From NCBI GenBank assembly GCA_004294095.1, contig RDZR01000026.1, positions 16,411 to 80,410 on the forward strand: 64,000 nt of DNA, written 5' to 3'. The notes below the pieces were generated by a model. That model was not told the DNA's origin. It ran no database searches and saw only the letters and a list, made by a program, of their open reading frames with translations. Source of the stretch: Verrucomicrobiota bacterium. GTDB taxonomy: Bacteria; Verrucomicrobiota; Verrucomicrobiia; Verrucomicrobiales; Akkermansiaceae. A program made the translations under genes and the position numbers. Shown piece by piece: positions 12,830 to 40,243 of this stretch. Each line of letters starts with the position of its first letter. Position 1 is the first letter of the stretch.

Positions 12830-13447
12830 ATGTTTACCGGCCTCATCGAAGCCATTGGCGCGGTGCGTCACATCCAACAGTTAGGCGAGCAAGCAAAACT
12901 CAGCCTCGATTTACCATTCCGCGATGAACTCGCACTCGGTGATTCCGTCGCGATCAACGGCTGCTGTCTCACGGTAAGTCGTTTTGCCGAAGATGCCGTG
13001 GAGTTCGATTTGTTAGAGCAAACTTTGCGCGTGACTGCACTCGGATCTCTAACCGCTGGCTCTCACGTCAATCTCGAACGCGCCATGATTCTCGGCGGGC
13101 GCATGGGCGGCCACTTGGTGCAAGGACATGTCGATGGCGTTGGCATCATCGAGAAAATCGAAGCCCGCGGCCAAGATCACATCATCCATGTCCGCCTGCC
13201 GCATGAGATCGCTACCCTCTGCATCGAAAAAGGCTCACTCGCCGTCGATGGCATCTCCCTTACCATCGCCGAGCTCGCCGATACGCTCGCCACATTTTGG
13301 ATCACCCCCCACACATGGCAAATGACCCACCTCGCCCACACCCGCGAACAAAGCCAAGTCAACCTCGAAGCCGATATGCTCGCAAAAATGGTCTATCAAT
13401 TCATGACCGCCCGCCAACTCACGCCAGCGAAAGATCAGAACCCCTGA
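12830..13447 (+). CDS. ribE: Riboflavin synthase alpha chain
   Basis: 'MFTGLIEAIG', 'GDSVAINGCCLTV', 'NLERAM..GGRMGGHLVQGHVDG' and 'GSLAVDGISLTI' form the duplicated lumazine-binding repeats. Confidence 0.93.
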   Translation: MFTGLIEAIGAVRHIQQLGEQAKLSLDLPFRDELALGDSVAINGCCLTVSRFAEDAVEFDLLEQTLRVTALGSLTAGSHVNLERAMILGGRMGGHLVQGHVDGVGIIEKIEARGQDHIIHVRLPHEIATLCIEKGSLAVDGISLTIAELADTLATFWITPHTWQMTHLAHTREQSQVNLEADMLAKMVYQFMTARQLTPAKDQNP

Positions 13448-13768
13448 CCTCATGCGAGTCGGAACGCAGCGAATGTCTTTAAAATCAAGGGGTTTGATCC
13501 TCTGAGCGGTTGGAGATCAAATTTGGTGAAAATGATACCGAAGTCGGCTCGGTGAATGACGACCTCAGCATGCCCCCCAGAGTTACAGGATTGCGCAAGC
13601 CCGTGGCAGTGTGGCAGCTTTGCTCATGCCGAAGATGCAATTGCCCATTTTTCTCCAATGAATCCATCTCATCACGCCGCACCTCGGCTATCAGCGCGAT
13701 GGCATCGTTTACCTCCACGGCATGATGCCCGTTTTCCTTCACCACTGCAATTCGCGGCCTCTTTCAAA

Positions 13769-14032
13769 ATGATCGTCAGCCAGTTCTATATTAACGGCAA
13801 CGCAAAGCAGGCGGAGTTAGTCCGCATGTTCGGCATCCAACCTCTCGCCCTCAAACGTTGGGTAAAAAGATACCGCACCGATGGTCCCAAGGCGTTTTTT
13901 GAAACCTGCCGCAAACGACATCCAACGCCCAAAAAAAGTCTCTGGACCAAGCTCACTCGCCAGACCCAGTCACCGCCCAACCCGCCGCCCCGCGAGGCAT
14001 CGCCGCCACCGACGAAAACAGGCGAGTGCTAG
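13769..14032 (+). CDS. Transposase-type helix-turn-helix fragment (N-terminal DNA-binding part only, low-complexity P-rich tail)
   Basis: 'AELVRMFGIQPLALKRWVKRYRTDGPKAFFE' matches the HTH + 'W..RY...G' pattern of IS630/IS481-type transposase N-termini. No DDE domain follows. It sits at the left island edge. Confidence 0.45.
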   Translation: MIVSQFYINGNAKQAELVRMFGIQPLALKRWVKRYRTDGPKAFFETCRKRHPTPKKSLWTKLTRQTQSPPNPPPREASPPPTKTGEC

Positions 14033-14358
14033 CCAGTCTCGGCAAAATCGCCGACCCCCAATTCGGCAGATGGTATTAACCTAAAAAACTAACGGGGTAA
14101 CATGCGTTTCAAATCAGTATCATCTTAAAGTCACCCCAACTCTGCCGAGGTCAGGTGTTCTCAAAATGCCTAACATGCCATGGCTTTAGGCAAGAAATTA
14201 TGCGGCCAGTATTCGTTAGCTGTTTGAATTCACGGCAGATACAATGGCTTCCGCGGAATGTGATTGTTGATCCTCCCGACTAACTTGAATGTCATGCGGC
14301 GGTGGGACAGAACGATTAGTAAGGTGGTCATTCCGCGCAGGGAAGCATGACCCATTCC

Positions 14359-15609
14359 TCAATTCTGTTTGGCCACGTTTGCGTCGACAATTCGGAGAAC
14401 CACTCTCCGGTTTGCGGATGGCGAGCCCTCCTGTGGCCTCACATACAAAGGCCTGGAGGATCCATGACCGATCGCAGAGACGCGACTGGCGTCTACGCCA
14501 GAGCGAATCAAAGCGTCACGCACAGAACCCGCCCGTCTTTCAGAGAGCCGTTGGTTGTGTTGTGCAGTACCTTCCGCTGATGTGTGACCCTCCACCACAA
14601 ACTTTGTAAATTGATAGCTTGGGTCGCGGAGCGCGGCTGCCGCTGACTCCAGCAGGGGAGTGCTTTCCTCACGAATTTTGGCAGAATCGAGATCGAAAAT
14701 GATCAGTAACGATACCTCCCTCAACGCTTTGAGGGACTCTCTTATCCCATCGGTTTGCTTAGGTTCCGGGGCCGCAGGTGCCGACGGCATGCTTGGCTGT
14801 CTTACAACCCGCACTGATCTTGTCGGAGCAACCCGCATTTCGACGGTTGTGTCCTGAGAATCCAAAGCGACTGGGCGCTCTGTGGCAAGTGAGCCATACT
14901 GGATCGAGGCACCCTGCCCTTGTATCCAGGCCGTGACGAATCTACGCACTGACGCTCTGTGGATGTCGTTCATGAAATCTGCGTCCACCGAGGTGTCATT
15001 CCACACAACACTGACATTGGATAACAGATCTCCCCTCGTGGCGAACGGCGTCTCATTGATTGTGGCTTGAAGATGCCCATCACTGGGAAAACGGCCTTCG
15101 TTGAAGGAAAACGCGGGCTCCTCACTATCCTGATTGAGCGTAGAGGAAGTGATCATCACCCTGCGAGTGTCGCTAGACATGTTTTCCCTGATTAGCGTGA
15201 ACAATTTCGGCAGGCTAATGATGGGTGCTTGATCATTAGCTATGGCTTTGATCAATTTCATAGCCGCGGCGACTTCCTCGTTAGCGGAAGCAAGGTCAAC
15301 CCTGTTTTCACCCGACTGCAATGCGAGCTGAGGCGTAATTGTGAACGCCGCAGTGCTCGCCAAAGGACCAGAAATCAAGGTGATCGTATCTCCGGCACCA
15401 CCGTTAATCAGGCAATCTTTCCATTGTTTAAAACTGATCGCCCTTGGCACTGTCTCATTAAAGACCAGCAGAACACTTCCCTGTGCAGGAGTTGCCTTGG
15501 CGTTATCATGATCCTTGCCACCACAGGAAACCATGAAGAGTGACGCTGCGGCGATGAGCAATGTAGTGATGCTGGTTTTCATAGGGGTTGTGGTGGTTTG
15601 TTGATTCAT
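14359..15609 (-). CDS. OmpA-domain lipoprotein (peptidoglycan-binding C-terminus, unknown N-terminal domain)
   Basis: Lipobox-like 'LLIAAASLFMVSCGG'. The C-terminus 'FDLDSAKIREES...VEGHTSAEGTAQHNQRLSERRAGSVRDAL' is the canonical OmpA_C motif. The start is ambiguous (15582, 15609 or the TTG at 15627). Confidence 0.8.
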   Translation of the reverse strand: MNQQTTTTPMKTSITTLLIAAASLFMVSCGGKDHDNAKATPAQGSVLLVFNETVPRAISFKQWKDCLINGGAGDTITLISGPLASTAAFTITPQLALQSGENRVDLASANEEVAAAMKLIKAIANDQAPIISLPKLFTLIRENMSSDTRRVMITSSTLNQDSEEPAFSFNEGRFPSDGHLQATINETPFATRGDLLSNVSVVWNDTSVDADFMNDIHRASVRRFVTAWIQGQGASIQYGSLATERPVALDSQDTTVEMRVAPTRSVRVVRQPSMPSAPAAPEPKQTDGIRESLKALREVSLLIIFDLDSAKIREESTPLLESAAAALRDPSYQFTKFVVEGHTSAEGTAQHNQRLSERRAGSVRDALIRSGVDASRVSAIGHGSSRPLYVRPQEGSPSANRRVVLRIVDANVAKQN

Positions 15610-15648
15610 ATTGGCTATGCGTGACAAAAAGAGTCCTGCGCGTGATAA

Positions 15649-16740
15649 CTACGCACGCTCCTGAAGACCATAATGGTAGATGGTGATACCTTCAGAGATG
15701 AAAAGGTCTCGCTCATGCTGGATCATCTGAAGACGCCCCTCGGCACTACCATGCTGGTTTGCCCTATCATGGAAATCGACATGAAGTTTATCCAAATCTC
15801 TTTTTACATTACCGTGGTGAGGATTCTTGATTTTTCCACTGTGATACCGTTTTGTAAGCATGAGGATCACACAGGATAGCGAAAGGGCTCCGGCGCTCAG
15901 CTCAAACAAGATCCACTTTTGTGTCAAATTACCACCCCGCATCAATTCGGATACGGATTCTTCCGGTGCTATTGCCAGCTTTTGTTCGGCCGTTAGTCCG
16001 TTGCGGACAGTCATAACTCCAAGTCCAAGAATGAAATTGCCGAAAGCAAAAGCAAATGGGATCAAGATCAATACGAGCAGCAGTTTCTTGAACCGATTGC
16101 TGGTTACAATATGCAACAAAACCTCCCCAACCATTCCGGCGATTAACAGAATCGCTCCCATGCCGTAGGTAAGAAACGGGTGATTGGTAAAAAGTGGTGA
16201 GTGAGTACCCTCGAAATGGGCCTTCATCGTTAACGGCGATAAAATCACCAGAATCGCGAGTGCCACAGCAGGAATGACCAGCATTATCCAATCTCCCGGG
16301 GTGAATGGCTTCTTTTCTACGTCGTCATTCAAAAACTGCGGCGTATTTGCAAGCTCCTTTGAGACGCGGAGCAATTCCTTCCTTGTTGCCAAACAGTTGC
16401 TCTTTTTGACTTCAGTGATTCTTGTAAGCGGCCCGACTAGCGGTGCGTAGTGCCGGTCAAAGACGGAACTCACAATCGCTTTGACGTTTTCAACGCTTCC
16501 GCTCTTATTCACGACCTGTTGCTGGATCGCGGCATACGGCATCATCGGCTTTTCATAAGTCTGATAGAAACGCTCGAAAGTATCTTTGTCGGGGATGCTT
16601 GAAGGCAAATAATCGACTTCGATTTGATCATCATCCGTATCAACAGCATCAGATGCACCACCCACAGAGTTTGTGACTTCACTGAGATCTTCAGTATTGA
16701 GATCGGCTTCTTTGTTCGCGTTGTTTTTCTGAGTGCTCAT
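15649..16740 (-). CDS. Hypothetical 4-TM membrane protein (acidic N-terminal cytoplasmic domain, C-terminal helical tail)
   Basis: A 363-aa ATG-initiated ORF with four clear hydrophobic helices between about aa 150 and 290. I recognise no family. Confidence 0.6.
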   Translation of the reverse strand: MSTQKNNANKEADLNTEDLSEVTNSVGGASDAVDTDDDQIEVDYLPSSIPDKDTFERFYQTYEKPMMPYAAIQQQVVNKSGSVENVKAIVSSVFDRHYAPLVGPLTRITEVKKSNCLATRKELLRVSKELANTPQFLNDDVEKKPFTPGDWIMLVIPAVALAILVILSPLTMKAHFEGTHSPLFTNHPFLTYGMGAILLIAGMVGEVLLHIVTSNRFKKLLLVLILIPFAFAFGNFILGLGVMTVRNGLTAEQKLAIAPEESVSELMRGGNLTQKWILFELSAGALSLSCVILMLTKRYHSGKIKNPHHGNVKRDLDKLHVDFHDRANQHGSAEGRLQMIQHERDLFISEGITIYHYGLQERA

Positions 16741-16819
16741 GGTGTTGGTGTCTGGTTTCTGTAGTTAGTGCGTTCGATGATCGGTCTTGCTTGTGACGAA
16801 AGTTGTTTATGGAGATGGA

Positions 16820-16850
16820 GATTCTGTTGCCAGGCTCACAGTGCCCCGAT
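16820..16850 (-). repeat. Copy 1 of the conserved leader/promoter motif (minus-strand sense ATCGGGGCAC-N3-GAGCCTGGCAACAGAATC)
   Basis: The 18-nt core GATTCTGTTGCCAGGCTC is identical in all three copies, and GTGCCCCGAT is conserved. It lies 80 nt upstream of the ATG at 16740. Confidence 0.8.
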
Positions 16851-16873
16851 ACTTAGTAAGTCCCGTTGAACGG

Positions 16874-16891
16874 CTAGCCAAAGTCTCCCAT
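16874..16891 (-). CDS. Mini-ORF MGDFG* with its own Shine-Dalgarno (AAAGGAG at 16900-16906)
   Basis: Minus-strand sequence ATG GGA GAC TTT GGC TAG. Its paralog at 17981-18004 keeps the peptide while all four third positions differ. It overlaps the 3' end of the 108-aa ORF 16874-17200. Confidence 0.45.
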   Translation of the reverse strand: MGDFG

Positions 16892-17200
16892 AGTATTTTC
16901 TCCTTTCATAAGTATTGCATGACAGAATTGGGAACCACCGTGACGGAGTTCGTCTCGGGATTGCGAACCCGAAGTAACGAGCGGTTTGTTTCCAACTAGT
17001 TTCACGTCGAAGTGCTCGACGTGCCCATCCATGTGGTGGATCTCGGCGAACTCATCGGGCTTGGCTATGCAGAGCTTGACGCCGCTCCAATAAGCCTTTG
17101 CTGCTGGATTGCTACGAGTCATGGTGATGCTGGCTTTCATGGCAGAGGCTGACTGGATCTTCTTGCGAGAGTAGCTTTTGATTTTCACTCTGGTGCTCAA
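16874..17200 (-). CDS. Hypothetical 108-aa ORF (TTG start); reality uncertain
   Basis: An ORF sits at the position expected downstream of repeat copy 2, 76 nt from the motif. There is no family match and no convincing SD. Its last 5 codons coincide with the conserved mini-ORF. Confidence 0.35.
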   Translation of the reverse strand: MSTRVKIKSYSRKKIQSASAMKASITMTRSNPAAKAYWSGVKLCIAKPDEFAEIHHMDGHVEHFDVKLVGNKPLVTSGSQSRDELRHGGSQFCHAILMKGENTMGDFG

Positions 17201-17275
17201 TGTTTGATGTGTGACTGACTACCCCCCTTCCGTGACGACCTCTGTTTTGGTTCACTCCTCTTTATCGAGATTTTG

Positions 17276-17307
17276 GATTCTGTTGCCAGGCTCCTATGCG
17301 CCCCGAT
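17276..17307 (-). repeat. Copy 2 of the conserved leader/promoter motif
   Basis: The same 18-nt core is followed by CTATGCGCCCCGAT. It lies 76 nt upstream of the TTG at 17200. Confidence 0.8.
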
Positions 17308-17398
17308 GCTGGATTAGTTGATTCGTTATTAATTCTTTATTCTGTATTACCTCCGTTCTTATGATCACTGCGTGACGCTATCCGAGTTTTCCGTGACA

Positions 17399-17869
17399 TC
17401 ATTCGTTTATATGCTTCCATTCCGGTATCGTTAGGAAATGCTCAAATGCGATTGGCCACCCTCCTGATGCACATATCGCATAGTGATAATCTCGTATTTT
17501 CCCATCACGCACGATTGTCTCAGGAGTGTCATCGAGAAATTCGATGCATTCTTCTTGCTTCGAAACCGTTATTCCCAGAGCCGACAAGTTGATCATGCCA
17601 CATTGACAGCAGATTTGAGGTTTGTGCGGCGGAGTTGTATATTCATGCGCCGTGTGGTAATACACGTTAGCAAGTGAAGGCAGTGCGTGAATGCAATCTG
17701 ATGTTCTCGCAGACACATGCAACAAGTCTTTCTTCACTTGACGTAATGCAATGTCTAGTGATGCGCCTTCTATCAAACAGATGAAGTATTTATGCCAAGT
17801 AGGCCGCTCTGGCAGCGTGTAGGAAAATGACACGATCCATTTTTGGTTTCTTTCTGTATGGTTTTTCAT
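17399..17869 (-). CDS. Hypothetical 156-aa protein, paralog of 18089-18550
   Basis: Alignable blocks shared with the 153-aa neighbour: 'FICLIEGASLDIAL' vs 'FLSCLVQGTSLREAL', 'ALPSLANVYYH' vs 'SLPSGAKVYLH', and 'YAICASGG..IAFEHFLTIPE' vs 'YAIRNSDGRIIRLEPFLILPD'. Confidence 0.65.
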   Translation of the reverse strand: MKNHTERNQKWIVSFSYTLPERPTWHKYFICLIEGASLDIALRQVKKDLLHVSARTSDCIHALPSLANVYYHTAHEYTTPPHKPQICCQCGMINLSALGITVSKQEECIEFLDDTPETIVRDGKIRDYHYAICASGGWPIAFEHFLTIPEWKHINE

Positions 17870-17926
17870 ATAATTCTAGCGTAATAGAATATCGTTCATT
17901 CGAACGGATGATATTTGGTAAATTGA

Positions 17927-17958
17927 GATTCTGTTGCCAGGCTCTCTAGTGCCCCGAT
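17927..17958 (-). repeat. Copy 3 of the conserved leader/promoter motif
   Basis: The same 18-nt core is followed by TCTAGTGCCCCGAT. It lies 58 nt upstream of the ATG at 17869. Confidence 0.8.
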
Positions 17959-17980
17959 TCTTAATCAGTGTTTCAGCGTA

Positions 17981-18004
17981 TTAGTCGCCTCCGAAATCGC
18001 CCAT
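17981..18004 (-). CDS. Mini-ORF MGDFGGD* with a strong Shine-Dalgarno (AAAGGAGGA at 18012-18020)
   Basis: Minus-strand sequence ATG GGC GAT TTC GGA GGC GAC TAA, with a 7-nt spacer after the SD. It lies in a 220-bp stretch otherwise lacking any ORF. Confidence 0.45.
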   Translation of the reverse strand: MGDFGGD

Positions 18005-18053
18005 ATTGATGTCCTCCTTTCGTGTGTATTGCGTGACCTCTGGCGAGTTGATC

Positions 18054-18070
18054 GTGACAGCAAGTGTCAC
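18054..18070. promoter_or_regulatory. Inverted repeat GTGACA-N5-TGTCAC just after the stop of 18089-18550
   Basis: Perfect 6-bp arms that share the GTGAC core recurring in all intergenic regions of this sub-cluster. Confidence 0.4.
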
Positions 18071-18088
18071 GTTCCAAATATCCCCATC

Positions 18089-18550
18089 CTAACGAAGGTC
18101 CGGAAGTATGAGGAATGGTTCTAGGCGAATGATTCGACCATCGCTGTTTCGGATCGCGTAGGGATTATCCCGTTTCAACCCATCCGGGATGAGTGGTTCG
18201 GGACAAGTGAAAATCGGAATGATGTCTTCCTCGCAATCGGGAATATCGATGCCGATTGTCTTCATGTCCATAGTGCCACTCATGAATAGGCATGATGCAT
18301 CCGTCGTCATTGCTCCAATCTCGACTGTCTGATGGAGATACACTTTCGCTCCCGAAGGAAGTGAATGCTCATTTTCTTTATCCTCGATATACATCTTTCG
18401 GATCGTAGTCTTGAGCTCTAAGAGGGCTTCACGCAGAGAAGTCCCTTGAACAAGGCACGATAGGAACGTGTTTACCTTGGCATTGTCGGGAGCAACGAGT
18501 GCAAGTTGCGCTAGCCAAATTCTCGACGATTTCGTGGATGGTTTCTTCAT
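18089..18550 (-). CDS. Hypothetical 153-aa protein, paralog of 17399-17869
   Basis: See the paralog alignment blocks above. ATG start at 18550. Confidence 0.65.
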   Translation of the reverse strand: MKKPSTKSSRIWLAQLALVAPDNAKVNTFLSCLVQGTSLREALLELKTTIRKMYIEDKENEHSLPSGAKVYLHQTVEIGAMTTDASCLFMSGTMDMKTIGIDIPDCEEDIIPIFTCPEPLIPDGLKRDNPYAIRNSDGRIIRLEPFLILPDLR

Positions 18551-18582
18551 ACCTATAGTGCATGACAGGAACTCGTTGGCTT

Positions 18583-18599
18583 GTGACGATTCTCGTCAC
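18583..18599. promoter_or_regulatory. Perfect palindrome GTGACGA-TTC-TCGTCAC, 33 nt upstream of the ATG at 18550
   Basis: 7-bp perfect arms. The left arm is part of GCTTGTGACGA, which is also present at 16788-16798 upstream of 15649-16740. Confidence 0.5.
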
Positions 18600-18622
18600 T
18601 GTATTCATAACATATTTAGTAT

Positions 18623-18643
18623 TTAGCAGATGTCATCTGCTAA
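18623..18643 (-). terminator. Hairpin TTAGCAGAT-GTC-ATCTGCTAA downstream of the receiver gene (terminator or operator)
   Basis: A perfect 9-bp stem with a 3-nt loop lies about 30 nt after the stop at 18672. It is followed by AT-rich sequence but has no clean U-tract. Confidence 0.35.
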
Positions 18644-18671
18644 CCGTCATCTCTTTCTTGCTCAGATCAAG

Positions 18672-20021
18672 TTATGAAATAGTCCACTCCACTCCGCTTG
18701 GAGGGTGGTAGGACCAAGCACCGCTTGTGGATGAAAGATAAGCTTCGAGGTGTGCAGCAAAGGCGGCGAAACCATTCTCACGTAAGCAGTCTCTGCATCG
18801 ACTCATGCGGGCCCGGAATGCCATTGCCGTTGGCGAATCTTCGCCCCATCCTCCTTGTCTTGACGTGTAATTGCCACCTTGGGGGTGAAGATCATTCTGT
18901 GCCATTTTTGGGATGTCGACCGAAGAGTCCTCTGGTGCGTTCTCTTCGCTTTCATCCGTTGGCACCTCTACTGGCAAATCATTTGCTCCTGACATCCGTG
19001 AGTATTGTTTCTCCGCAATCGAGGCTAAAGGACCAAGCTCGCTAACAATCACAGCGAGCTCCTCTTCTTCATTCGCGGAGAGATCCTCCTCCTCTTCGAG
19101 TTCTCTGAGTTCGACATATCTGGTAAAGCGATGCGCTAGTGCAACCCGAATGAGATTCTCCTGGGCTTCCTCTGACATCTCGTTCCAAGGAACCCCTTTG
19201 GATACGAAGTAGTCCCTGACGGGATCTTCGACTTCCCCAGCATCGCCACTCCCAGCCTGATCGGGCTTTTCGTTTTTTGGTTCGAGGAACAAAGCTGCCT
19301 CTGGATTCAATGACTCGCCACGTTCCATTGACAAAATGTGATGCAACGTCTTGAAGCCGGTTTTGTGCGGAAGTGTCCGGATGTCCCCACAATCGAAGCG
19401 GATTTGCCAATGAAGCGACGTGGTCTCAATGAACTTTCGGGCTCCCTTTTTGTTCTTGTCTTCCTTTGCCGCCTTGACTCGTTCGAGGCTCTTCACTTCG
19501 ATCGGTCTGAAGATGTAACGCAACCTTCCCACCTCGCCGAAAACAAGAGCGATCTGCTCGATGCGATTGTGGAGAAGCGTCTGCGCCTCCTCCTGAGGTA
19601 GAAACCGTGAAGGCTTCTCGACCACCAACAGCCGCTCTGCCGGGAATTTCCGGTAGGCGGCGCTGCGTAAACTCTTCCTCAGCCTATCGCCCTCTTCCGC
19701 ACCCATAATCGTGTCGATACTGGCGTCGGTCTCTACACCAGTCAGCAAGGATACCATCCATGCGGATTGAAATCGTTTCAATGAGGCCAGGACATCGAGG
19801 CCCGACAGGTCGGCATCTCCAAGATTCACGTCCAAAGAGACCAGATCGTAAGGATGCGCTTGGGCCTGCCTGGCCAGATCACGAGCCTCTTCCACCGTGG
19901 ATGCGGTTTCGATCGTGATTGAGGTGTATCCCTGTGCAATGAAAACCTCGCGATAGGTCTTTTTTAAAAGAGCAAGCAAATCGGCTTCGTCTTCAACAAT
20001 GAGCATTCGGATGGATTTCAT
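18672..20021 (-). CDS. Orphan response-regulator receiver protein with a non-canonical output region (REC-A)
   Basis: Receiver signature 'LIVEDE' ... 'DLVSLDVNL' ... 'VSLLTGV' ... 'VVEKPS'. This is followed by 'WQIRFDCGDIRTLPHKTGFKTLHHIL', acidic linkers and a helical C-terminus. It is a paralog of 21995-23401. I chose the ATG at 20021; the track ORF runs to 20168. Confidence 0.8.
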   Translation of the reverse strand: MKSIRMLIVEDEADLLALLKKTYREVFIAQGYTSITIETASTVEEARDLARQAQAHPYDLVSLDVNLGDADLSGLDVLASLKRFQSAWMVSLLTGVETDASIDTIMGAEEGDRLRKSLRSAAYRKFPAERLLVVEKPSRFLPQEEAQTLLHNRIEQIALVFGEVGRLRYIFRPIEVKSLERVKAAKEDKNKKGARKFIETTSLHWQIRFDCGDIRTLPHKTGFKTLHHILSMERGESLNPEAALFLEPKNEKPDQAGSGDAGEVEDPVRDYFVSKGVPWNEMSEEAQENLIRVALAHRFTRYVELRELEEEEDLSANEEEELAVIVSELGPLASIAEKQYSRMSGANDLPVEVPTDESEENAPEDSSVDIPKMAQNDLHPQGGNYTSRQGGWGEDSPTAMAFRARMSRCRDCLRENGFAAFAAHLEAYLSSTSGAWSYHPPSGVEWTIS

Positions 20022-20041
20022 GGAGATTGGGTGGTTTGAAT

Positions 20042-20800
20042 TCAACGCAGCAGTGAGGGAATCTCCCCGCGCAGTGCCTCTGTAACTTCTTGCGTGACGC
20101 CTGTGGTCACAAGCAGTCGAAGGGTGGTTCTGAGCCGATTTCCAGTAGGGTGGCACGGTTGGGAACAAAACAGGTCGAGGTCGTATTCGTTGTCCTCAAA
20201 CACCTTCCGAACTTCCGTTGCAGCCGCAATCATTTCGCTCGCGCTGCCGGAGATTGCAGCCATTTTTAGAGCGGCCAGGGCAATCCGCCGCTTGTCAGCT
20301 CTCCGGCGGCCATTGAAGAAGACGAGATCCTTAGGCACAAGCTTCCCGAGCACCAAAAGCAAATCGGACAAAGACTCGGCTGAACGCCACACGCCATTGG
20401 CATTTGAAACAGGATCCAGAAAGTCCAAAGCCATTCCAGAAGCCAGAGAGGATTCAAATCCAGAGGGCGCGCCGGAAGGCAGGACGTGAATAAAGGCCAG
20501 TTGATGGCAGTCTCCGGCTGGAGAAAGCTTCTCCACCCACTTCCAAACCTCTTCGAAGCCGCTCAAATGATCCGAAGCGGACATCTTCAAGTCGGCCACC
20601 AAGAAGACATGAGTGAGTTCGTCCAGAGGCTTTTTCGAGAATACGCCACCGTCGCCCGGTTCCGGACCTGCCATAATCGACGGGTAGTCCAAGGTCGCGG
20701 CATCAAAAATCAAAGTCAGCGCCCTGGCCATAGGGCCGCTGCCAATCACCAAGGAATGAGGAGGAAAAAGTTCCCAGGATTGAGGAATTGCGGTGGGCAT
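20042..20800 (-). CDS. Hypothetical 'GSGP' protein, partner A (paralog of 23406-24107)
   Basis: 'LVIGSGPMARALTLIFDAA' and 'HVFLVADL' match 'IILGSGPVASVLAQVFDAL' and 'HVFQVATA' in partner B. I chose the ATG at 20800 over the TTG at 20836. No known family. Confidence 0.6.
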   Translation of the reverse strand: MPTAIPQSWELFPPHSLVIGSGPMARALTLIFDAATLDYPSIMAGPEPGDGGVFSKKPLDELTHVFLVADLKMSASDHLSGFEEVWKWVEKLSPAGDCHQLAFIHVLPSGAPSGFESSLASGMALDFLDPVSNANGVWRSAESLSDLLLVLGKLVPKDLVFFNGRRRADKRRIALAALKMAAISGSASEMIAAATEVRKVFEDNEYDLDLFCSQPCHPTGNRLRTTLRLLVTTGVTQEVTEALRGEIPSLLR

Positions 20801-20863
20801 GGGTCTCGGGCTTTTCGAGGAAGGAGTGCTGGGCAATGATGAAAGGAATGAACGTCGCCGTCA

Positions 20864-21457
20864 TCAAAGCACGGAATCAGGCACGGGAACTACCGCTTTT
20901 TTCCAAAAATCCATGGTCTTGGGCTCCAACAAGCCCTCTTCGTGGTCCCCAAACTCCAGGAGAGCATCAAGAAATGAAAGCGCGAGTTCGTGCCTTCCAA
21001 GGAGAGTCATTGACCGCAACATTCGGGTAATCCGCAGCTGATTGTGGTTACCCTTGCGAAGCCACGGATGGTAGTGAAGGGGCCAATTGTCCGATTCGTC
21101 ATATTGGCCAATCACCCTGAAGAGGACTTCTTTCACTTCGGGGCGGGCGGGATCGAGGCCAGGCATAAACCCAAAAAAATTCAGCATCTTGGAAATGGAT
21201 TTTTCGAAATTGTCCTGAAGCTTCGAATAACCAGCATGAGCTGGATCTAGGAAAATTTCCCTAATCTCGTCCGTAAGCACTGGAGCGTGGGGATTGAATC
21301 GACTGCTCACATAGAGCGGGAAAAGCCATTGGATGTAGTCGTGAGTTTCTTCAAGCCAAAGCTTATCCTTGGACAAAATCTCCTCAAGACTCCGCCCCAT
21401 GTGATCAGTGCCTGTGCCGAGGTAGAAATCGAGCAGCAACGTGTCTTCTTCGTTCAT
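20864..21457 (-). CDS. Opioid-growth-factor-receptor (OGFr_N)-like domain protein
   Basis: 'HDYIQWLFPLYVSSRFNPHAPVLTDEIREIF...MLNFFGF' matches the OGFr conserved-region signature (H.(Y/F)IQWLFPL...LT..EI..F). Confidence 0.75.
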   Translation of the reverse strand: MNEEDTLLLDFYLGTGTDHMGRSLEEILSKDKLWLEETHDYIQWLFPLYVSSRFNPHAPVLTDEIREIFLDPAHAGYSKLQDNFEKSISKMLNFFGFMPGLDPARPEVKEVLFRVIGQYDESDNWPLHYHPWLRKGNHNQLRITRMLRSMTLLGRHELALSFLDALLEFGDHEEGLLEPKTMDFWKKAVVPVPDSVL

Positions 21458-21990
21458 CTTAACTCATCCTCTCTGGCGAGAACTAATTCCATTTTGGCAT
21501 GGAGATCCGAAATCGAATCCATTCGGTCCAAAAACATTTTTCCGTCCAAGTGGTCGAGTTCGTGGAGGAAAACCCTTGCGGCGAGGTCGCGCAATTCACT
21601 TTCGATCAGCTCGCCATAACGATTCTGCCAACGGGCCAGAATTTTGGCAGGCCGAGTGATCAATGCTTTGTATCCGGGCATGCTGTAACAGGATTCCCAC
21701 GCCCGGTCGAGCTCTTCGGACTCCGAGAGAACTTCCGGATTGATAACCTCCATGGGCGGAACATCGGGAGCATTAGGGAAAAGTTCTCCTTTTCGCGACT
21801 GCATCACAAACAACCGGACGGATTCATTGACTTGAGGAGCGGCCAAACCGACGCCATTCACTCCGCCCATTGTTGCGAGGAGGTCATTGATAAGAATTTG
21901 AATCCGAGGATCTTCCGGATTGGGCACTTCGGGCGCACGTTCGCGAAGGATTGGATTTCCTATCAGAGCTACTTGGAGGATACGGGACAT
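21454..21990 (-). CDS. def: Peptide deformylase paralog
   Basis: All three PDF motifs are present: 'GVGLAAPQV', 'ESCYSMPG' (an EGCLS variant) and 'HELDHLDG'. There is an ATGA overlap with the OGFr-like gene. Confidence 0.85.
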   Translation of the reverse strand: MSRILQVALIGNPILRERAPEVPNPEDPRIQILINDLLATMGGVNGVGLAAPQVNESVRLFVMQSRKGELFPNAPDVPPMEVINPEVLSESEELDRAWESCYSMPGYKALITRPAKILARWQNRYGELIESELRDLAARVFLHELDHLDGKMFLDRMDSISDLHAKMELVLAREDELR

Positions 21991-21994
21991 TGGC

Positions 21995-23401
21995 TTAATA
22001 AGTGTTCCAGACAATGGATCCCTTTTCTACTGCATAGCAGAACTTGAAGTTACGTATCTTGATATTAGTGAATAGGTGGTCTGCCAACTCCACCTGCCCT
22101 GCCTCTCGGAGTTCGGCGATTGCTCTAGATTTATGTTGTTTGATCGTCTCGTGTGAACGGCCGCCCACGGTATTTCTGCGCACGTCGCCCAATGCCTTCC
22201 GAAGGGCTGCGATCTCGGTTTCGAGTATCGAGCGCAAGCGTCGATTGGCTGAGGCGAGCTGCGCCTCTTTTCGTTGAATTTCCCTTCGATACACGGCATG
22301 CGTTTCCTTAGCCGTGTCATCCGTATTCAGATTTTCCTGGATTGCTCGGTTGTTGTCGTAATCCCTACGATTCCCCCCATTTTCCCTTTGGAATGGATCC
22401 TCGTCGTCATCTTCGCCGTCCTCATCATCTTCGGCGTCTGACATGTCACCATCACCAGGGTTTTGATGAAGGAAGCCGACAGCCTCCTGGCCAATATCAG
22501 CAGCTTCACCACCAATCTGGTGTGCGGCAAACTCTTCATCTGGATGACGCAGCAACCACGCGATCGTTTCAAAATTCGGATTGTCCGGCAGGGAAATCAC
22601 TTCTCCACATCCGAAACTGATCTGCCATAGCGTGACTGTATCATCTGCCCATTGCGCGGGCGCAAGTTTGCTCCCATTCTTCTTCAACATGTCTAACTCT
22701 ATTTCCATTTCGTAGTCGCCTAGGCGTTTCGAATCGGAACAAGTAGAGGGACCTTTGGGGTACTTTTTGTTAAACGCTTTGACAAAATCCATGGCCTTTT
22801 TGGCCCGATTGAACTCTGGCGAGTTTCTTTTGATCCATTGTCCGTCAATCAACTCGTGAACAGCGATCTGGCAAGGCTCCTTCAAGCGACGGAAACGGTT
22901 GCGCCCGATACGACTCTGACGCAGGTACAGACAAACCTGGCGCAAGCGTTTGGCCAGCAGCTCCGTGTTGGATAGATCCGGCTTCTCCCTCACCATCAAT
23001 CGTTCCGGTGGAAAAGTCGCCGATGCACGAGAATGGAGCTCAAATTGGAGGAGTCGCGCCCGGTGCTCTCCGTAAGTGTCGTCCACGGTCGTGTCGCTTT
23101 CCACTCCGGTCAGAATCGAAACCAACCAAGCCGCCTTCCATTGACTAATGATGCCAAGAAGCGCGAGACCGTCGATGGGGTCTTCTGCCGCATCATTGCT
23201 AAAACTGATGTCGAGCGAAATCAGGTCGTAGGGAATCTCCGCTGCGCGACGGATCGCCTCCCGGCACTTCTGGATAGTGTCCGGGGCTTCAATGGTGCAG
23301 GGAAGCTTTAGATCATTGAAAATCTCCAAGAAGTTGCTTTTGATGGCTTGAGCCCATTTGGGTTCGTCTTCGACAATGAGGATGCGGAGAGGTTGTGACA
23401 T
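21995..23401 (-). CDS. Orphan response-regulator receiver protein with a non-canonical output region (REC-B)
   Basis: 'LIVEDEP' ... 'DLISLDISF' ... 'VSILTGV' ... 'MVREKPD'. This is followed by 'WQISFGCGEVISLPDNPNFETIAWLLRHPDEEF', a poly-acidic 'DAEDDEDGEDDDED' stretch, a coiled segment and 'ETIKQHKSRAIAELRE'. Confidence 0.8.
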   Translation of the reverse strand: MSQPLRILIVEDEPKWAQAIKSNFLEIFNDLKLPCTIEAPDTIQKCREAIRRAAEIPYDLISLDISFSNDAAEDPIDGLALLGIISQWKAAWLVSILTGVESDTTVDDTYGEHRARLLQFELHSRASATFPPERLMVREKPDLSNTELLAKRLRQVCLYLRQSRIGRNRFRRLKEPCQIAVHELIDGQWIKRNSPEFNRAKKAMDFVKAFNKKYPKGPSTCSDSKRLGDYEMEIELDMLKKNGSKLAPAQWADDTVTLWQISFGCGEVISLPDNPNFETIAWLLRHPDEEFAAHQIGGEAADIGQEAVGFLHQNPGDGDMSDAEDDEDGEDDDEDPFQRENGGNRRDYDNNRAIQENLNTDDTAKETHAVYRREIQRKEAQLASANRRLRSILETEIAALRKALGDVRRNTVGGRSHETIKQHKSRAIAELREAGQVELADHLFTNIKIRNFKFCYAVEKGSIVWNTY

Positions 23402-23405
23402 AGTC

Positions 23406-24107
23406 TTATGGAGTGAGGATGATCTGGCGAAGGAGCGATTCTCCTTCTACAAACCATTGCGTGACGGGGTCTGTATCCGGGGCGAGAAGCCACTCACGGA
23501 TGCGATTCGCCAACTCATGATCGGCCAGTGGGCAGTATCGCTCCCAGCGGAGTGGCAGTAAGTTGCTCGCAAGCTTCAAAATTCGACTCCGGTTCTCTTC
23601 GGTATGCTCGCCCTTGCAGACTAGCTGGAGAATTTCCTTCCTGAGCGCGACCTGTTCATCAGTGAGTTGGGAATTGAGCCATTCCGTGAACTGATGCGGG
23701 CGCGCCTCGTTGCAGGCTTCGAGAATACTGAATAGGCCTACCTCCACGGAAACTGGGAGGCAATACGGCGAGGGTGTGGCCCCGCATCCTCGGTCGCCAT
23801 GGTGGCAATCGAGAAGCAGCCACTTCAAGCCGGGGTCGCTTTTGATGTCTCTGCCACCCTTCGCGCCATAGAGCCGCCAGAACGCGTCATGCCGCCATCG
23901 CGTCTGCGCTGAAGACTCTGTGGCGGTAGCAACTTGAAAAACATGCCGACAGCCGATCAGTGGTGATTCGAAAGGGGTGGATAGCCCCCACTTCTGCCTG
24001 ATCAGCCGCTCGTCAGGAATCGGCAATGCGTCAAAAACCTGCGCCAGTACGCTCGCCACCGGGCCGGAGCCAAGGATGATTCGTTGTCGATGCGGGCTTG
24101 CGGGCAT
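23406..24107 (-). CDS. Hypothetical 'GSGP' protein, partner B (paralog of 20042-20800)
   Basis: See partner A. 233 aa, with a 4-nt gap to REC-B and a 3-nt gap to the 875-aa gene. Confidence 0.6.
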   Translation of the reverse strand: MPASPHRQRIILGSGPVASVLAQVFDALPIPDERLIRQKWGLSTPFESPLIGCRHVFQVATATESSAQTRWRHDAFWRLYGAKGGRDIKSDPGLKWLLLDCHHGDRGCGATPSPYCLPVSVEVGLFSILEACNEARPHQFTEWLNSQLTDEQVALRKEILQLVCKGEHTEENRSRILKLASNLLPLRWERYCPLADHELANRIREWLLAPDTDPVTQWFVEGESLLRQIILTP

Positions 24108-24110
24108 GAC

Positions 24111-26738: not shown

Positions 26739-27466
26739 GGCCGAAGTGTATTAAGGAAATCCAGTTTCTCGGAGAGCGCCTTGGATGCGGATACCAGATT
26801 TTGCCCGCTCTTTGACGCTTTTACGACCTCCGCCGCCAATTTGGTGAGATCGTCCGGTGGTTTAACAATCGTGATGCGGTTGCATTCTTCTGTCTCGATT
26901 CCAGACGCCTCCATCAAAAGCCTTGCAGCCATAACTACCTCGTTGAGCCATGCGATGTCGGTTGATGCGCATGCACCTGCCTCGTCCCGAAGTGTCCGGA
27001 GCACTTGAAGCTCTTGATTCACAACTTGTTTTAGGAAATCCGCGTCGCATCGAGGAGGCAGAACGCCTGCATAAAATCTGACACGTAAAGACGGATAGCC
27101 TTCCAGTGGTCCTCCTTTACCAGTTGCGGCTAAACACCACTCGCTTCTTGTTGCCAATTTTGTGTCGCCCCCAGAGTAAAGAATAACGTAAGGCTCGGAA
27201 CCCGCCGGGCAATTCCTCAGGCACTTTATAAACCCTTGAATCTGGACAGAGTGCGAGTACTCGTTCTCCCAGTTCGTTAGAGTAAGGTCAGGATGTTCAC
27301 CTCGCTCATGCTCGTGTGTATGAGCGAAGACAAGATCAACTGGATCGAATGTTGGTGGGAAACTGCTGTCATGCTCGTGTGCAAAAACAATCTCAGTCAG
27401 ACCACCAGTGGGAAATGCATTCTTCCACGCTTCAACGCGACAGGTATCAATAATGTAGATCTTCAT
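26735..27466 (-). CDS. Hypothetical 243-aa protein (possible degenerate flavodoxin/receiver-like N-terminus)
   Basis: An ATG ORF with an ATGA overlap onto the 875-aa gene. The strand pattern 'KIYIIDT', 'DLVFAH', 'YVILYSGG' is suggestive only, and there is no K-P. Confidence 0.5.
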   Translation of the reverse strand: MKIYIIDTCRVEAWKNAFPTGGLTEIVFAHEHDSSFPPTFDPVDLVFAHTHEHERGEHPDLTLTNWENEYSHSVQIQGFIKCLRNCPAGSEPYVILYSGGDTKLATRSEWCLAATGKGGPLEGYPSLRVRFYAGVLPPRCDADFLKQVVNQELQVLRTLRDEAGACASTDIAWLNEVVMAARLLMEASGIETEECNRITIVKPPDDLTKLAAEVVKASKSGQNLVSASKALSEKLDFLNTLRP

Positions 27467-27470
27467 GTTT

Positions 27471-30335: not shown

Positions 30336-31170
30336 ATTCCGCTATAAGAGTTGCCTCACTTTCGACTCCGGCAGAAGGGAATCCAAGATTCAAAATGGAC
30401 GTGGTCCTGGCCCCAAAAATTTCAACGGCGCGCATTGATCCCAATTCAACGTAATGCCTACAAACAGATGGAAAAAGGCTAACAAAGGCAGTGGCGCCTG
30501 TTCGAGTGGTTGCCTCGTATATCATTTCTGCAACTTCTCCTGTGCAATCCGCTGACTTTCCCGTGCAATACGCTTCCTGCAATGCTCCGGAAAGATCCGG
30601 AAGTAAACAGACGACATTCCCATTTGACTCCTCTATCCGTGCAGATGGAGGAAGCTTGCCGTCCGCAATCAACTGTGCCATGCGATTTTTGTGACGATTT
30701 CGTAAGTTCATTTCACCATAAAACGGTGCGGTCGATACGGCGTTCGATACAGGAGGCTTCGGCTCTAGCAACGCAACGCTGTCAGAGTGTAAAGCGAGCG
30801 TTTCAGAATAGACCTGTGGTAACCCTATTTGGCCCGTATAGAAGCTGGACCGATTCACGTCTTTCGGGACGTATTGCCAATCGTTTACCGCAATCATCAC
30901 ATGCTTTTGTGGGGTCTCAAGTTCCGCCATCAGTTTCAACGCGAGTTTCCAAGTAAGAATGGGAAAGTGACCATAAGCCTCGAAAAATGGTTCTATAACC
31001 GGGGTTATGGGCTCACCTTGAACGCAGGAAACGAGGCAACCTTTTGACTTGTCATACATCAGCAGAAAATGCCCTGCCTGGAAAACAACGGATTGCGCAT
31101 CCCCTACAGCCGCGATCGTCAAATCGCGAAGAGCTTCGTAGTCTTTAGGAAAATGGTGCGTAAGATTCAT
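30307..31170 (-). CDS. Hypothetical 287-aa protein translationally coupled to the cysteine desulfurase
   Basis: An ATG ORF with an ATGA overlap onto the desulfurase stop. It contains a Cys pair, 'CTGKSADCTGE'. No known family and no PP-loop SGGxDS. Confidence 0.55.
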   Translation of the reverse strand: MNLTHHFPKDYEALRDLTIAAVGDAQSVVFQAGHFLLMYDKSKGCLVSCVQGEPITPVIEPFFEAYGHFPILTWKLALKLMAELETPQKHVMIAVNDWQYVPKDVNRSSFYTGQIGLPQVYSETLALHSDSVALLEPKPPVSNAVSTAPFYGEMNLRNRHKNRMAQLIADGKLPPSARIEESNGNVVCLLPDLSGALQEAYCTGKSADCTGEVAEMIYEATTRTGATAFVSLFPSVCRHYVELGSMRAVEIFGARTTSILNLGFPSAGVESEATLIAECEASLHLFK

Positions 31171-32968: not shown

Positions 32969-32999
32969 TTTCAGAACTGACTGTATCGAACAACATCAA

Positions 33000-33122
33000 C
33001 TACTTATCTATTACCTTGGAATCTTCATGGAGGTATTTCACGAAGCGGATCACAGAGACAAGACTTGCTACTCCACTGATAATGGCGATCAACGGAAAGA
33101 GATAGATTGAGATTTGGAGCAT
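33000..33122 (-). CDS. 40-aa single-TM peptide downstream of the symporter (possible symporter small accessory protein)
   Basis: Minus-strand ATG at 33122 to TAG at 33000 gives MLQISIYLFPLIAIISGVASLVSVIRFVKYLHEDSKVIDK. It begins 12 nt after the symporter stop. It is absent from the ORF track, which lists no ORF shorter than 60 aa. Confidence 0.4.
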   Translation of the reverse strand: MLQISIYLFPLIAIISGVASLVSVIRFVKYLHEDSKVIDK

Positions 33123-33134
33123 TGATGAGTTTGG

Positions 33135-34535: not shown

Positions 34536-34562
34536 TGGAGAACAGGCTATGTGTTGATTATT

Positions 34563-34587
34563 GGGCGTGACAGGATCGGTCACGCCC
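34563..34587. promoter_or_regulatory. Perfect palindrome GGGCGTGAC-N7-GTCACGCCC, 28 nt upstream of the symporter ATG
   Basis: 9-bp perfect arms with the same CGTGAC core seen upstream of the other island transcription units. Confidence 0.55.
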
Positions 34588-39359: not shown

Positions 39360-39361
39360 AT

Positions 39362-40240: not shown

Positions 40241-40243
40241 AAC

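Follow-up and report, generated by a model that had tools for sequence, protein, structure and literature searches.

Three copies of an identical 18-nt sequence beside three small genes of a verrucomicrobial contig raise the question of whether the sequence belongs to the genes that follow it or to those that precede it. The 18-mer, GATTCTGTTGCCAGGCTC, occurs without mismatch at positions 16820, 17276 and 17927 (plus strand) of the window, by which is meant the whole 64-kb stretch of the contig that was analysed. No fourth site was found in the window even when up to 3 mismatches were allowed, and three matches were reached in 0 of 100 shuffles. A second conserved half, G(T/C)GCCCCGAT, accompanies each copy (16841-16850, 17298-17307 and 17949-17958) and is separated from the 18-mer by 3-4 nt. 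The genes next to the repeats are on the minus strand and the motif is oriented with them; read on the gene strand, it is CUGAnUAAGAnUCGGGGx-stem-yCCUGGCAACAGAA-stem'.

The initial annotation had already described the threefold repeat with 18/18 identity, the presence of the second half at all three copies, the absence of the motif elsewhere in the window, and start codons 58-80 nt away. These observations stand, except that the gap between the halves had been put at 3-6 nt; the ORF starts at 16740 (ATG), 17200 (TTG) and 17869 (ATG) lie 80, 76 and 58 nt from the 18-mer, respectively. A covariance model (R1) built solely from phage and metagenome copies, with the window sequence left out, recovers the same three sites and no others (Table 1); the next match in the window has E = 2.7.

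Table 1. Coordinates of the features discussed (positions in the window)
Feature	Position	Strand	Remarks
Motif copy 1	16810..16862	-	core 16820-16850 intact; R1 33.4 bits, E = 3e-8
Motif copy 2	17266..17328	-	core 17276-17307 intact; R1 27.3 bits, E = 2e-6
Motif copy 3	17917..17970	-	best copy; R1 57.3 bits, E = 1e-15
Conserved block	17971..18075	-	upstream of copy 3; alignments A3, A4
Terminator-like hairpin	17883..17906	-	CGUUCGAAUGAACG then AUAUUCUAUU; 20 nt after copy 3; weak match
363-aa ORF	15649..16740	-	downstream of copy 1; no family assignment
108-aa ORF	16874..17200	-	last ~85 nt form a copy of the conserved block
156-aa ORF	17399..17869	-	cassette between copies 3 and 2
153-aa ORF	18089..18550	-	upstream of copy 3; no family assignment
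Island holding the array	13436..40242		26.8 kb; strain-specific

The repeats as members of an RNA family

Contig scans uncovered more than 140 distinct isolated copies of the motif, unaccompanied by tmRNA, in viral and metagenome contigs, and covariation among these copies backs three helices: a hairpin (P0), a pseudoknot helix (S1) and a variable stem (S2). P0 is 92% paired and S1 96% paired, both with double changes. The closing pair of S1 is paired in 138 of 149 copies (93%), against a shuffle mean of 90 (60%) and a shuffle maximum of 104, and is found as C:G (67 copies), U:A (47), U:G (10), G:C (7) and A:U (5). S2 reaches at least 5 bp in 65% of the family copies, compared with 10% in a null set whose mean is 2.5 bp. 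One U:G pair in P0 is nearly invariant (49/52). Counts of G:U and A:C in S2 (11 versus 10) show no strand asymmetry.

Within the window, copy 3 is the most complete. Its P0 hairpin, CUGAUU-AAG-AAUCGG, occupies 17968-17954; S1 pairs GGC (17953-17951) with GCC (17942-17940), S2 pairs GAGA (17946-17943) with UCUC (17928-17925), and positions 17941-17929 carry the invariant CCUGGCAACAGAA. Folding of this copy with RNAfold (z = -2.0) returns P0 and S2. The invariant UCGGGG ... CCUGGCAACAGAA arrangement appears in all three copies as GGGGC ... GCCUGG, with C:G as the closing pair. In copy 1, P0 is broken by two substitutions relative to the orthologous copies of the related loci L393-L396, which score 52 bits and have P0 intact. 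In copy 2, P0 is degenerate and S2 is reduced to GGA/UCC, where related locus L394 has UAGGA/UCCUA; comparison with the near-identical contig L120 reveals a G-to-A difference in P0 of this copy. Because copies 1 and 2 have a degenerate P0, an S2 of only 2-3 bp and scores below those of their counterparts in relatives, the full fold may not form there. The flank pairing pointed out in the initial annotation (GAGA/UCUC, GGA/UCC) corresponds to S2 and is well supported in relatives, although it amounts to only 4, 3 and 2 contiguous bp in the window copies.

The motif defines a candidate RNA family that is widespread and has no entry in Rfam 15. No Rfam 15 family other than tmRNA matches at the gathering score, either in the window or among isolated copies in 10 phage-like loci. 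Literature searches on tmRNA-like elements and on the motif sequence returned no description of isolated copies, and BLAST against GenBank phages returned nothing but one phage tmRNA.

Kinship with the closing pseudoknot of alpha tmRNA

Among the matches listed, more than 100 genomes have the 18-mer at the 3' end of an alpha tmRNA gene. A chance match was rejected because the similarity continues as far as CGGGGC, with unchanged spacing, and the stem beside it shows covariation. On sequence comparison, the module is homologous to PK2, the closing pseudoknot of the coding piece of the alpha-type two-piece tmRNA. Like alphaproteobacterial PK2 (the 3' part of RF01849), it carries the invariant CCUGGCAACAGAA in its loop and a preceding (C)GGGG; in both, the fifth base of this run covaries with the base before CCU, and the enclosing stem covaries as well. 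Both also lie a few to tens of nucleotides past a stop codon (the tag stop in tmRNA), often with a terminator next, and the same invariant bases recur after the stop at the same spacing. The P0 of the window and family copies (GnnU-AAG-AnnC) stands where tmRNA has a helix before PK2.

The rest of tmRNA is missing from the window. ARAGORN found no tmRNA or tRNA in the 64-kb window, and an Rfam scan of the window gave nothing at the gathering score; copy 2 has a partial match to alpha_tmRNA (RF01849), confined to the 3' end of the model and scoring 21.4 bits (E = 0.003) where the gathering score is 50. The window lacks PK1 and the tRNA-like domain (acceptor stem, T arm, CCA) of two-piece tmRNA (RF01849 / RF04321). 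A tag frame with resume codon and degron (...ALAA) is absent too; the frames upstream of the motif are ordinary ORFs or the SD-led mini-ORF MGDFG. Also unlike tmRNA, there are several copies per locus. The phyla named as having two-piece tmRNA do not include the host phylum (PMC3985003, PMC9004378).

Two other RNA candidates were tried. An HDV-like ribozyme threading (resemblance at CUGGGCAACA) was rejected on inspection, since the needed P1 partner is unconserved among alpha tmRNAs. A glutamine riboswitch has been reported at the 3' end of phage ssrA (PMC9004378), and it was set aside because neither a glnA nor a Downstream-peptide riboswitch match was found on the window or the related loci scanned.

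Gene context and competing readings

The position of the family copies follows the upstream gene. Among 85 copies with enough flanking sequence, 76 (89%) have an upstream neighbour on the same strand, with its stop codon a median of 27 nt away, and a same-strand ORF ends within 260 nt upstream of 124 of 145 copies. Stop-to-motif distances have modes at 5, 9 and 24-28 nt, and some stop codons fall inside the motif. The upstream proteins, 126 in number, form 89 clusters. The next gene is convergent in 30 of the 85 copies (35%), and the distance from the motif to the next start is broad (median 90 nt, IQR 50-229 nt). A terminator-like hairpin is found downstream of 40 of 108 copies, compared with 7-15 of 108 in controls (3-5 fold enrichment), and in contig L272 the unit of ORF, motif, terminator and next ORF occurs four times. 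In the window, the motif marks the ends of three small genes, which argues against its being the promoter of the gene that follows. The initial annotation had proposed a shared promoter/operator or a structured 5' leader RNA; the structured RNA is borne out by three covarying helices in more than 140 copies, but the tie to the stop codon speaks against both the promoter/operator and the 5' leader.

The window fits this pattern in part. The 108-aa ORF has its stop codon 26 nt ahead of the GGGG in copy 1, and a mini-ORF (MGDFGGD, 17981-18004) has its stop 25 nt ahead of the GGGG in copy 3, both at the modal family distance. Measured from the long ORFs, the distances are 92 nt for copy 2 and 131 nt for copy 3, and these exceed the family mode unless the mini-ORF is the frame that matters. 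Copy 3 alone among the window copies has a terminator-like hairpin after it, and the number of terminator-like sites in the region is not above shuffle expectation.

Upstream of the window repeats, the homology between copies continues for about 100 nt and enters the preceding ORF's 3' end; downstream it is lost within about 10 nt. The genes downstream of the three repeats are unrelated to each other. With the homology running upstream rather than downstream, and with so many convergent next genes in the family, the promoter or 5' leader that had been proposed is not supported. The conserved block upstream of copy 3 contains two GTCACG boxes, GGAGG and the mini-ORF, and it shares homology with the coding sequence at the 3' end of genes of the 108-aa family; the 108-aa ORF itself ends in GTCACG..GTCATGCA..GGAG..ATG GGA GAC TTT GGC TAG. 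Only two clusters of homologs of this ORF were found, and the motif stands after both. The GGAGG, an ATG and an ORF of 5-7 codons are present in 6 of 7 verrucomicrobial copies, with differences largely at third codon positions; the start codon is lost in copy 2. The core of the motif is identical at 24-26 of 26 positions in all pairs among 7 copies (3 genomes), compared with 44-69% for the rest of the block. Judged from this pattern, the core is under selective constraint.

One might nevertheless read the motif as the 5' leader or attenuator of the downstream genes, with a promoter in the GTCACG block, the mini-ORF as leader peptide, and the pseudoknot, with or without the hairpin, governing read-through via a ligand or via translation of the mini-ORF. 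Small H-type pseudoknots with invariant loops are typical of aptamers, and the preQ1, SAM-II and guanidine-III riboswitch aptamers resemble the module in their comparable size, invariant loop nucleotides and covarying stems. The wide occurrence of the SD-led mini-ORF with its third-position changes, the location of the motifs 58-80 nt before the next start, and the terminator-like hairpins that often come after the family copies, much like riboswitch expression platforms, all agree with such a leader. However, those aptamers lie in 5' leaders of functionally related genes, whereas the module lies past the stops of unrelated genes and ends a non-coding RNA: its tmRNA homolog closes an RNA 3' end, with nothing after it. 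The mutually unrelated downstream genes, the absence of a start codon in copy 2, the convergent next genes and the broad distances to the next start also count against a leader. Given the homology of the block to the 3' part of the 108-aa coding sequence, its boxes and mini-ORF may descend from coding DNA. A search of the block for sigma-70-like promoters found none, although promoters in this phylum may be of another form. A leader or attenuator is unlikely on this evidence.

It is quite unlikely that the copies are decaying relics of phage-derived cassettes, duplicated along with genes and now devoid of function here. The degraded P0 and S2 of copies 1 and 2 relative to their L393 and L394 counterparts, the lost mini-ORF start of copy 2, and the G-to-A change in its P0 would all fit such decay. 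Against this, the near-identity of the 26 core positions persists in a block that has diverged and among paralogous proteins (the 156-aa and 153-aa ORFs) that are 28% identical, a pattern that would call for either selection or ongoing gene conversion.

Another reading is a role as a DNA recombination site. The motif would then be an att- or attC-like site, derived from the tmRNA 3' end that integrases target, and cassettes would be swapped in integron fashion. The tmRNA segment is indeed duplicated by island integration in alphaproteobacteria, and tandem copies occur in L031, L090, L063 and L076. The array also lies in a mobile island: a close relative (GCA_013297845.1) has 588 nt where the island sits, between flanks that are 97.5-98.8% identical, and the island is horizontally acquired. 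The array consists of ORF-plus-repeat units in one orientation. Missing from loci L394-L396 are precisely the 156-aa gene and one repeat, the junction falling within the motif, and L393 carries a different cassette upstream. In these respects the array recalls integron cassette arrays (ORF plus attC), in which small co-oriented ORFs differ in presence between strains and the structured repeat can overlap a stop codon.

The differences are nonetheless substantial. No integrase or recombinase, including intI or any tyrosine recombinase, was found among the island ORFs scanned. The attC core or R/L box consensus (GTTRRRY, or a GTTRRRY/RYYYAAC pair) is absent from the repeats on inspection, and the fold is a pseudoknot rather than an imperfect hairpin. 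In the phage contigs, unlike integron cassettes, terminators come after the copies and every gene has an SD of its own. The covariation of the X-Y pseudoknot pair and the nearly invariant U:G of P0 fit a sense-strand RNA better than duplex DNA, and in 89% of cases the motif points the same way as the upstream ORF. A 16-nt loop is too long for the overlap region of a tyrosine recombinase. The insertion/deletion is equally explained by homologous recombination between repeats of 50-150 nt. The tmRNA 3'-end duplications left as att scars of islands or prophages in L031, L090, L063 and L076 are, like the window repeats, direct repeats of a tmRNA segment in mobile DNA. However, they begin inside the motif, between GG and GAGCC, they lack CGGGGC and P0, and they are identical to the adjoining intact tmRNA end; the window copies span the whole module, although P0 and S2 are degenerate in copies 1 and 2, they vary among themselves in spacer and stems, and there is no tmRNA in the window. 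An attP-only origin of the viral copies was rejected, given that the contigs carry 2-4 copies, each past an ORF and ahead of a terminator. The MITE or IS terminal repeat, which the initial annotation had weighed against its own proposal, is likewise not what is found. A recombination site as the basis of the motif is very unlikely.

That the motif serves as promoter or operator, whether as a DNA site bound by a protein or (because it contains TGGCAA) as a sigma-54-type promoter, is hardly credible: the motif contains TGGCA and is repeated before three starts at similar distances, but there is no fit to TGGCAC-N5-TTGC (TGGCAACAGAAUC lacks GC at -12), the spacing of GGGGCAC-N-GAGCC is wrong and variable, the conserved halves lie 3-4 nt apart in the window with up to ~8 nt variation in the family, the helices covary, and the position follows the upstream stop codon, so that both sigma-54 and sigma-70 promoters were ruled out on spacing and position.

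A 3'-UTR module and its possible role

On balance, the repeats are probably structured RNA modules, homologous to PK2, in the 3' UTRs of the upstream small genes of the horizontally acquired island. Each repeat would encode a structured RNA of about 55 nt on the minus-strand transcript, in which P0, a short hairpin (CUGAnU-AAG-AnUCGG), stacks on an H-type pseudoknot. GGGx would pair with yCCU as S1, and the variable S2 would enclose the invariant CCUGGCAACAGAA. Copies of the family trail the stops of a diverse set of phage-like genes, most of them small, often before an intrinsic terminator, and in the window the module would be the 3'-UTR element of three small-gene cassettes. The module presumably acts in cis on the upstream mRNA, and the stop-to-motif distances would set the terminating ribosome against the fold. 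By analogy with tmRNA, and from its position, the fold may define or protect the 3' end of the transcript, possibly through the conserved partner by which PK2 is recognised in tmRNA. The repeats would also serve as recombination joints for the gain and loss of cassettes, perhaps incidentally.

A bolder and more tentative proposal, which we regard as rather unlikely, is that PK2, more than a scaffold of tmRNA, is a portable module that binds the ribosome or a decay factor and that phages and islands have put right after stop codons, where the terminating ribosome or a conserved partner such as RNase R, S1 or SmpB would meet it at the mRNA 3' end; in a second version, it would be the recombination site of an integron-like cassette system that arose from tmRNA-targeting integrases. 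If the proposal is correct, a portable PK2 would decide what becomes of an mRNA, or keep trans-translation and exonucleases away from phage messages.

The literature on two-piece tmRNA that was searched does not address the role of the extremely conserved PK2 loop. Here the module is found detached from tmRNA and under selection, past the stops of unrelated genes in many phage-like contigs and in a verrucomicrobial island, which suggests that it can function autonomously. This makes for a simple test system, in which about 55 nt can be inserted or deleted after a stop codon. The family can also cause spurious partial tmRNA calls, and it may mark the boundaries of gene cassettes in phage genomes.

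Likeness of the repeats to the 3' end of two-piece tmRNA

The initial annotation reported an 18-mer in triplicate that is absent from the rest of the window, and this proved exact: GATTCTGTTGCCAGGCTC occurs on the + strand at 16820, 17276 and 17927, no fourth site exists in the window with up to 3 mismatches allowed, and three matches were reached in 0 of 100 shuffles. The second half-motif, G(T/C)GCCCCGAT, does follow each 18-mer, at a gap of 3-4 nt and not the 3-6 nt originally given. In gene sense the motif reads AUCGGGGC(A/G)C-N3-4-GAGCCUGGCAACAGAAUC, with one copy in each of three consecutive intergenic regions; the - strand carries every substantial ORF of the repeat region (see table). 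The 153-, 156-, 108- and 363-aa proteins have no match in Pfam, PHROGs or PADLOC.

A genome scan with one genome per species found the exact 18-mer at more than 119 loci, nearly all in Alphaproteobacteria and, among the matches listed, mostly one per genome. In every alphaproteobacterial locus checked, it is the 3' end of a permuted (two-piece) tmRNA gene (Rfam RF01849). The tmRNA segment 3' of the tag stop codon is PK2, the pseudoknot that ends the coding piece. It reads GGCGGGGCC-stem-GAGCCUGGCAACAGAAUC-stem'-ACC with CGGGGC spaced as in the window, so that the likeness exceeds the 18-mer. The stem around the loop covaries between genomes (CGCAG/CUGC, CGCCG/CGGC, UGUCGG/CCGGCG, CGGAG/CUCC, CGGGGG/CCCCC); the RF01849 model shows the PK2 segment as unpaired.

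No tmRNA or tRNA was found in the window, and its RF01849 match is partial, covering only the model's 3' end (21.4 bits). Housekeeping proteins point to a Verrucomicrobiota host, the best named matches of riboflavin synthase (~65% identical) being from Verrucomicrobiales, Akkermansiaceae and Luteolibacter. Reports of two-piece tmRNA concern other phyla: Alphaproteobacteria with some Beta- and Gammaproteobacteria, and also Cyanobacteria (PMC3985003, PMC9004378). It is therefore unlikely that the window motif copies the host's own tmRNA end.

A cultured Rhizobium phage has a tmRNA in which PK2 comes after the tag stop codon and a separate terminator after PK2, an order shared with the isolated motif units described below. 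Permuted tmRNA genes adjoin tRNA arrays in viral contigs L185, L170, L189, L230 and L123 and in the cultured Rhizobium phage RHph_I1_18 (L397), whose GenBank record does not annotate the tmRNA (locus 1258-1581) as such. Tandem duplications of tmRNA 3' ends with a 70-80-nt period occur in Bosea and Hyphomicrobiales MAGs (L031 2037-2194, L090, L063, L076); such duplications are what islands classically leave behind when they integrate repeatedly at ssrA.

A pseudoknot family outside tmRNA

PK2-like modules are also found in contigs without tmRNA (isolated copies). At least 120 loci in viral contigs match CCTGGCAACAGAAT, about half of those listed with (C/A)GGGG and a complementary stem; many are part of complete permuted tmRNAs, some next to tRNA arrays, and others have no tmRNA. 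The tmRNA-less copies have the prefix (C)UGAnUAAGAnUC in common, and the pattern with this prefix recovers at least 34 viral and more than 120 metagenome loci. Removal of duplicates leaves about 145 distinct isolated copies, with two to four copies on each of at least 10 contigs; because these scans matched exact patterns, the size of the family and its range of hosts are lower bounds biased to the variants searched. Rfam has no family for these copies at gathering score (10 phage-like loci scanned), and a literature search aimed at them found no description.

The genome scan gave two non-alphaproteobacterial matches with the full module. One, L053 (QMRG01000041.1, in a MAG labelled Thermoprotei), holds at 1-780 a CRISPR array with a ~35-nt repeat, CTCTCAATTCTTTTTTAATTAAGATTTTTTGTGTG, and one spacer is a complete PK2-like motif (CCGGGGCUUGGGAGGAGCCUGGCAACAGAAUCCUCC); this contig may be mis-binned. 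The other, L110 (CAZQSC010000201.1), is an AT-rich 4-kb contig with three GC-rich motif copies (2676-3626) between small co-oriented ORFs. High GC content extends beyond each copy on that contig, which may mean that the RNA there is larger than the module. A phage-like contig with the motif after a DUF2828/DUF7788 gene also carries a Pistol ribozyme (L370 272-340, 55.8 bits).

Pairing across isolated copies supports a hairpin (P0) and two pseudoknot stems (S1 and S2), which bears out the earlier idea of a structured RNA. S1 joins the base 3' of GGGG to the base 5' of CCU; the two can pair in 138 of 149 copies (shuffles: mean 90, maximum 104), by C:G in 67, U:A in 47, U:G in 10, G:C in 7, A:U in 5 and G:U in 2, and tmRNA copies follow the same pattern. 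In a MAFFT alignment of 52 isolated copies, S1 is 96% paired and P0 (CUGAnU-AAG-AnUCGG) 92% paired, with a variable pair that is A:U in 24, G:C in 10 and C:G in 6; the joint score of the three named helices exceeds all 500 shuffles and all slid controls. The register of S2 varies, so it could not be scored on this alignment and was assessed by a separate permutation test: at least 5 contiguous pairs form in 65% of 93 copies unselected for S2, versus 10% with permuted 3' flanks. Since the invariant CCUGGCAACAGAA covers both the 3' strand of S1 and the long loop, the predicted fold is a hairpin stacked on an H-type pseudoknot.

Position relative to genes and the copies in the window

A same-strand ORF of at least 50 aa ends within 260 nt upstream of 124 of the 145 isolated copies. 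Stop-to-motif distances peak at 5 nt, 9 nt and 24-28 nt, and at the first two peaks the stop codon is a UAA or UGA within P0. Of the 85 copies flanked by 600 nt or more, 76 share their strand with the nearest upstream neighbour (stop codon to GGGG, median 27 nt) and 30 have a convergent downstream neighbour; distances to a co-directional downstream start are broad (median 90 nt, IQR 50-229 nt). A terminator-like hairpin with a U-run follows within 90 nt in 40/108 copies, versus 7-15/108 at control positions. At L272 the order ORF stop, P0/pseudoknot, canonical terminator, palindrome, SD, next ORF is repeated four times in a row. On these grounds of stop-codon position, orientation, neighbours and terminators, the module is assigned to the reading frame before it, as part of that frame's 3' end, and not to the next gene, and the promoter or operator first proposed is rejected. 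The motif is not tied to any one gene family, since the 126 upstream proteins form 89 clusters.

A covariance model built from 52 foreign copies only (R1) finds exactly three matches in the 64-kb window, the next having E = 2.7 (E-values are rough, from a short calibration). Copy 3 has P0 and S1 intact and an S2 of 4 bp. Copies 1 and 2 keep all invariant bases, with P0 broken and S2 only 2-3 bp; their counterparts in the related metagenomic loci L393-L396 are better formed (39-52 bits).

Features of the repeat region and its island (window positions unless marked)
Feature	Position	Strand	Source or score	Context
153-aa ORF	18089-18550	-	ORF call	
156-aa ORF	17399-17869	-	ORF call	
108-aa ORF	16874-17200	-	ORF call	
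363-aa ORF	15649-16740	-	ORF call	
Motif copy 3	17917-17970	-	R1, 57.3 bits	
Motif copy 2	17266-17328	-	R1, 27.3 bits	
Motif copy 1	16810-16862	-	R1, 33.4 bits	
Mini-ORF site	17981-18004	-	sequence	
Mini-ORF site	16874-16891	-	sequence	
Mini-ORF site	183-203 (L393)		sequence	
954-aa methyltransferase-domain protein	27471-30335			island
HerA-like ATPase	35374-37839		mad8/HerA matches	island

Homology among the window repeats reaches ~100 nt upstream, and downstream likeness is gone within ~10 nt. The shared stretch contains two GTCACG boxes, GGAGG, and ATG GGN GAY TTY GG followed by a stop codon. In the 108-aa gene family this stretch forms the 3' end of the coding sequence; behind the 153-aa and 156-aa genes only a fragment or mini-ORF of it is left. 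From stop to GGGG is 26 nt for the 108-aa ORF and 25 nt for the mini-ORF MGDFGGD, the modal family distance. In 6 of 7 verrucomicrobial copies the motif is preceded, at 22-27 nt, by an SD-led mini-ORF (MGDFGGD, MGDFG, MRDFGN, MGDMG), and most differences between copies are at third codon positions. Translation of the mini-ORF is one possibility, inheritance from the C-terminus of the 108-aa family another. With this mini-ORF as leader peptide, the motif could be an attenuator for the next gene; this is judged unlikely, and the three downstream genes bear no relation to one another. The 108-family paralog that precedes motif copy A in L393 (100-146) has the C-terminus ...SVTLAA*. The 12-mer that encodes this ending, CTCGCAGCCTAA, also closes the tag in some tmRNAs (e.g. 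L172), which could be chance or could reflect a natural ssrA-like degron.

The broken helices of copies 1 and 2 might suggest that the window copies are dead relics. This is quite improbable, because the 26 core positions are 24-26/26 identical in every pair (seven copies, three genomes), while paralogous copies share only 44-69% identity over the remainder of the block and the 153-aa protein shares just 28% with the 156-aa one. Such core conservation fits selection on, or gene conversion of, the bases invariant in tmRNA and phage copies.

The array lies within a 26.8-kb strain-specific island, since the close relative GCA_013297845.1, with flanks 97.5-98.8% identical, has 588 nt in place of window 13436-40242. 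Besides the products in the table, the island encodes a peptide deformylase, two receiver-domain proteins, DUF4143, an OGFr_N-like protein and an 875-aa protein with a weak DUF3800 match. No integrase was found among the island ORFs scanned; the island may be one for defence or a mobile one. GTGAC/GTCACAAGC-type palindromes recur at 18579-18599 upstream of the 153-aa gene, at 16788-16802 upstream of the 363-aa gene and at 20094-20114 upstream of a receiver-domain gene (498-aa ORF). They may be operators or promoters, perhaps for receiver-domain proteins of the island. At a second strain indel (window 7386-7491 versus L392 3129-4661), the relative has an extra 1.5-kb segment encoding a 544-aa Helicase_C_3 protein, which the window does not have.

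Loci L394-L396 (77-86% identical) are without exactly the 156-aa gene and one repeat (window 17310-17927), with the junction inside the motif, and L393 has a different 108-aa-family paralog upstream instead; the repeats therefore bound cassette-level variation. That the motif itself is an att/attC-like recombination joint is nonetheless very unlikely.

Possible role at mRNA 3' ends

The window repeats belong to a widespread RNA motif that is structured and strand-specific, shares homology with tmRNA PK2, follows stop codons and often precedes terminators. The motif would presumably work in cis, its target being the upstream transcript. Given the size of a ribosome footprint, termination at a stop codon that lies 5-9 nt ahead of S1, or 11-14 nt ahead of P0, would bring the ribosome up against the fold. 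Since the same invariant loop is found in tmRNAs across Alphaproteobacteria, the analogy suggests a conserved partner. The reading we favour is that the motif may help to define the 3' end of the mRNA or to protect it.
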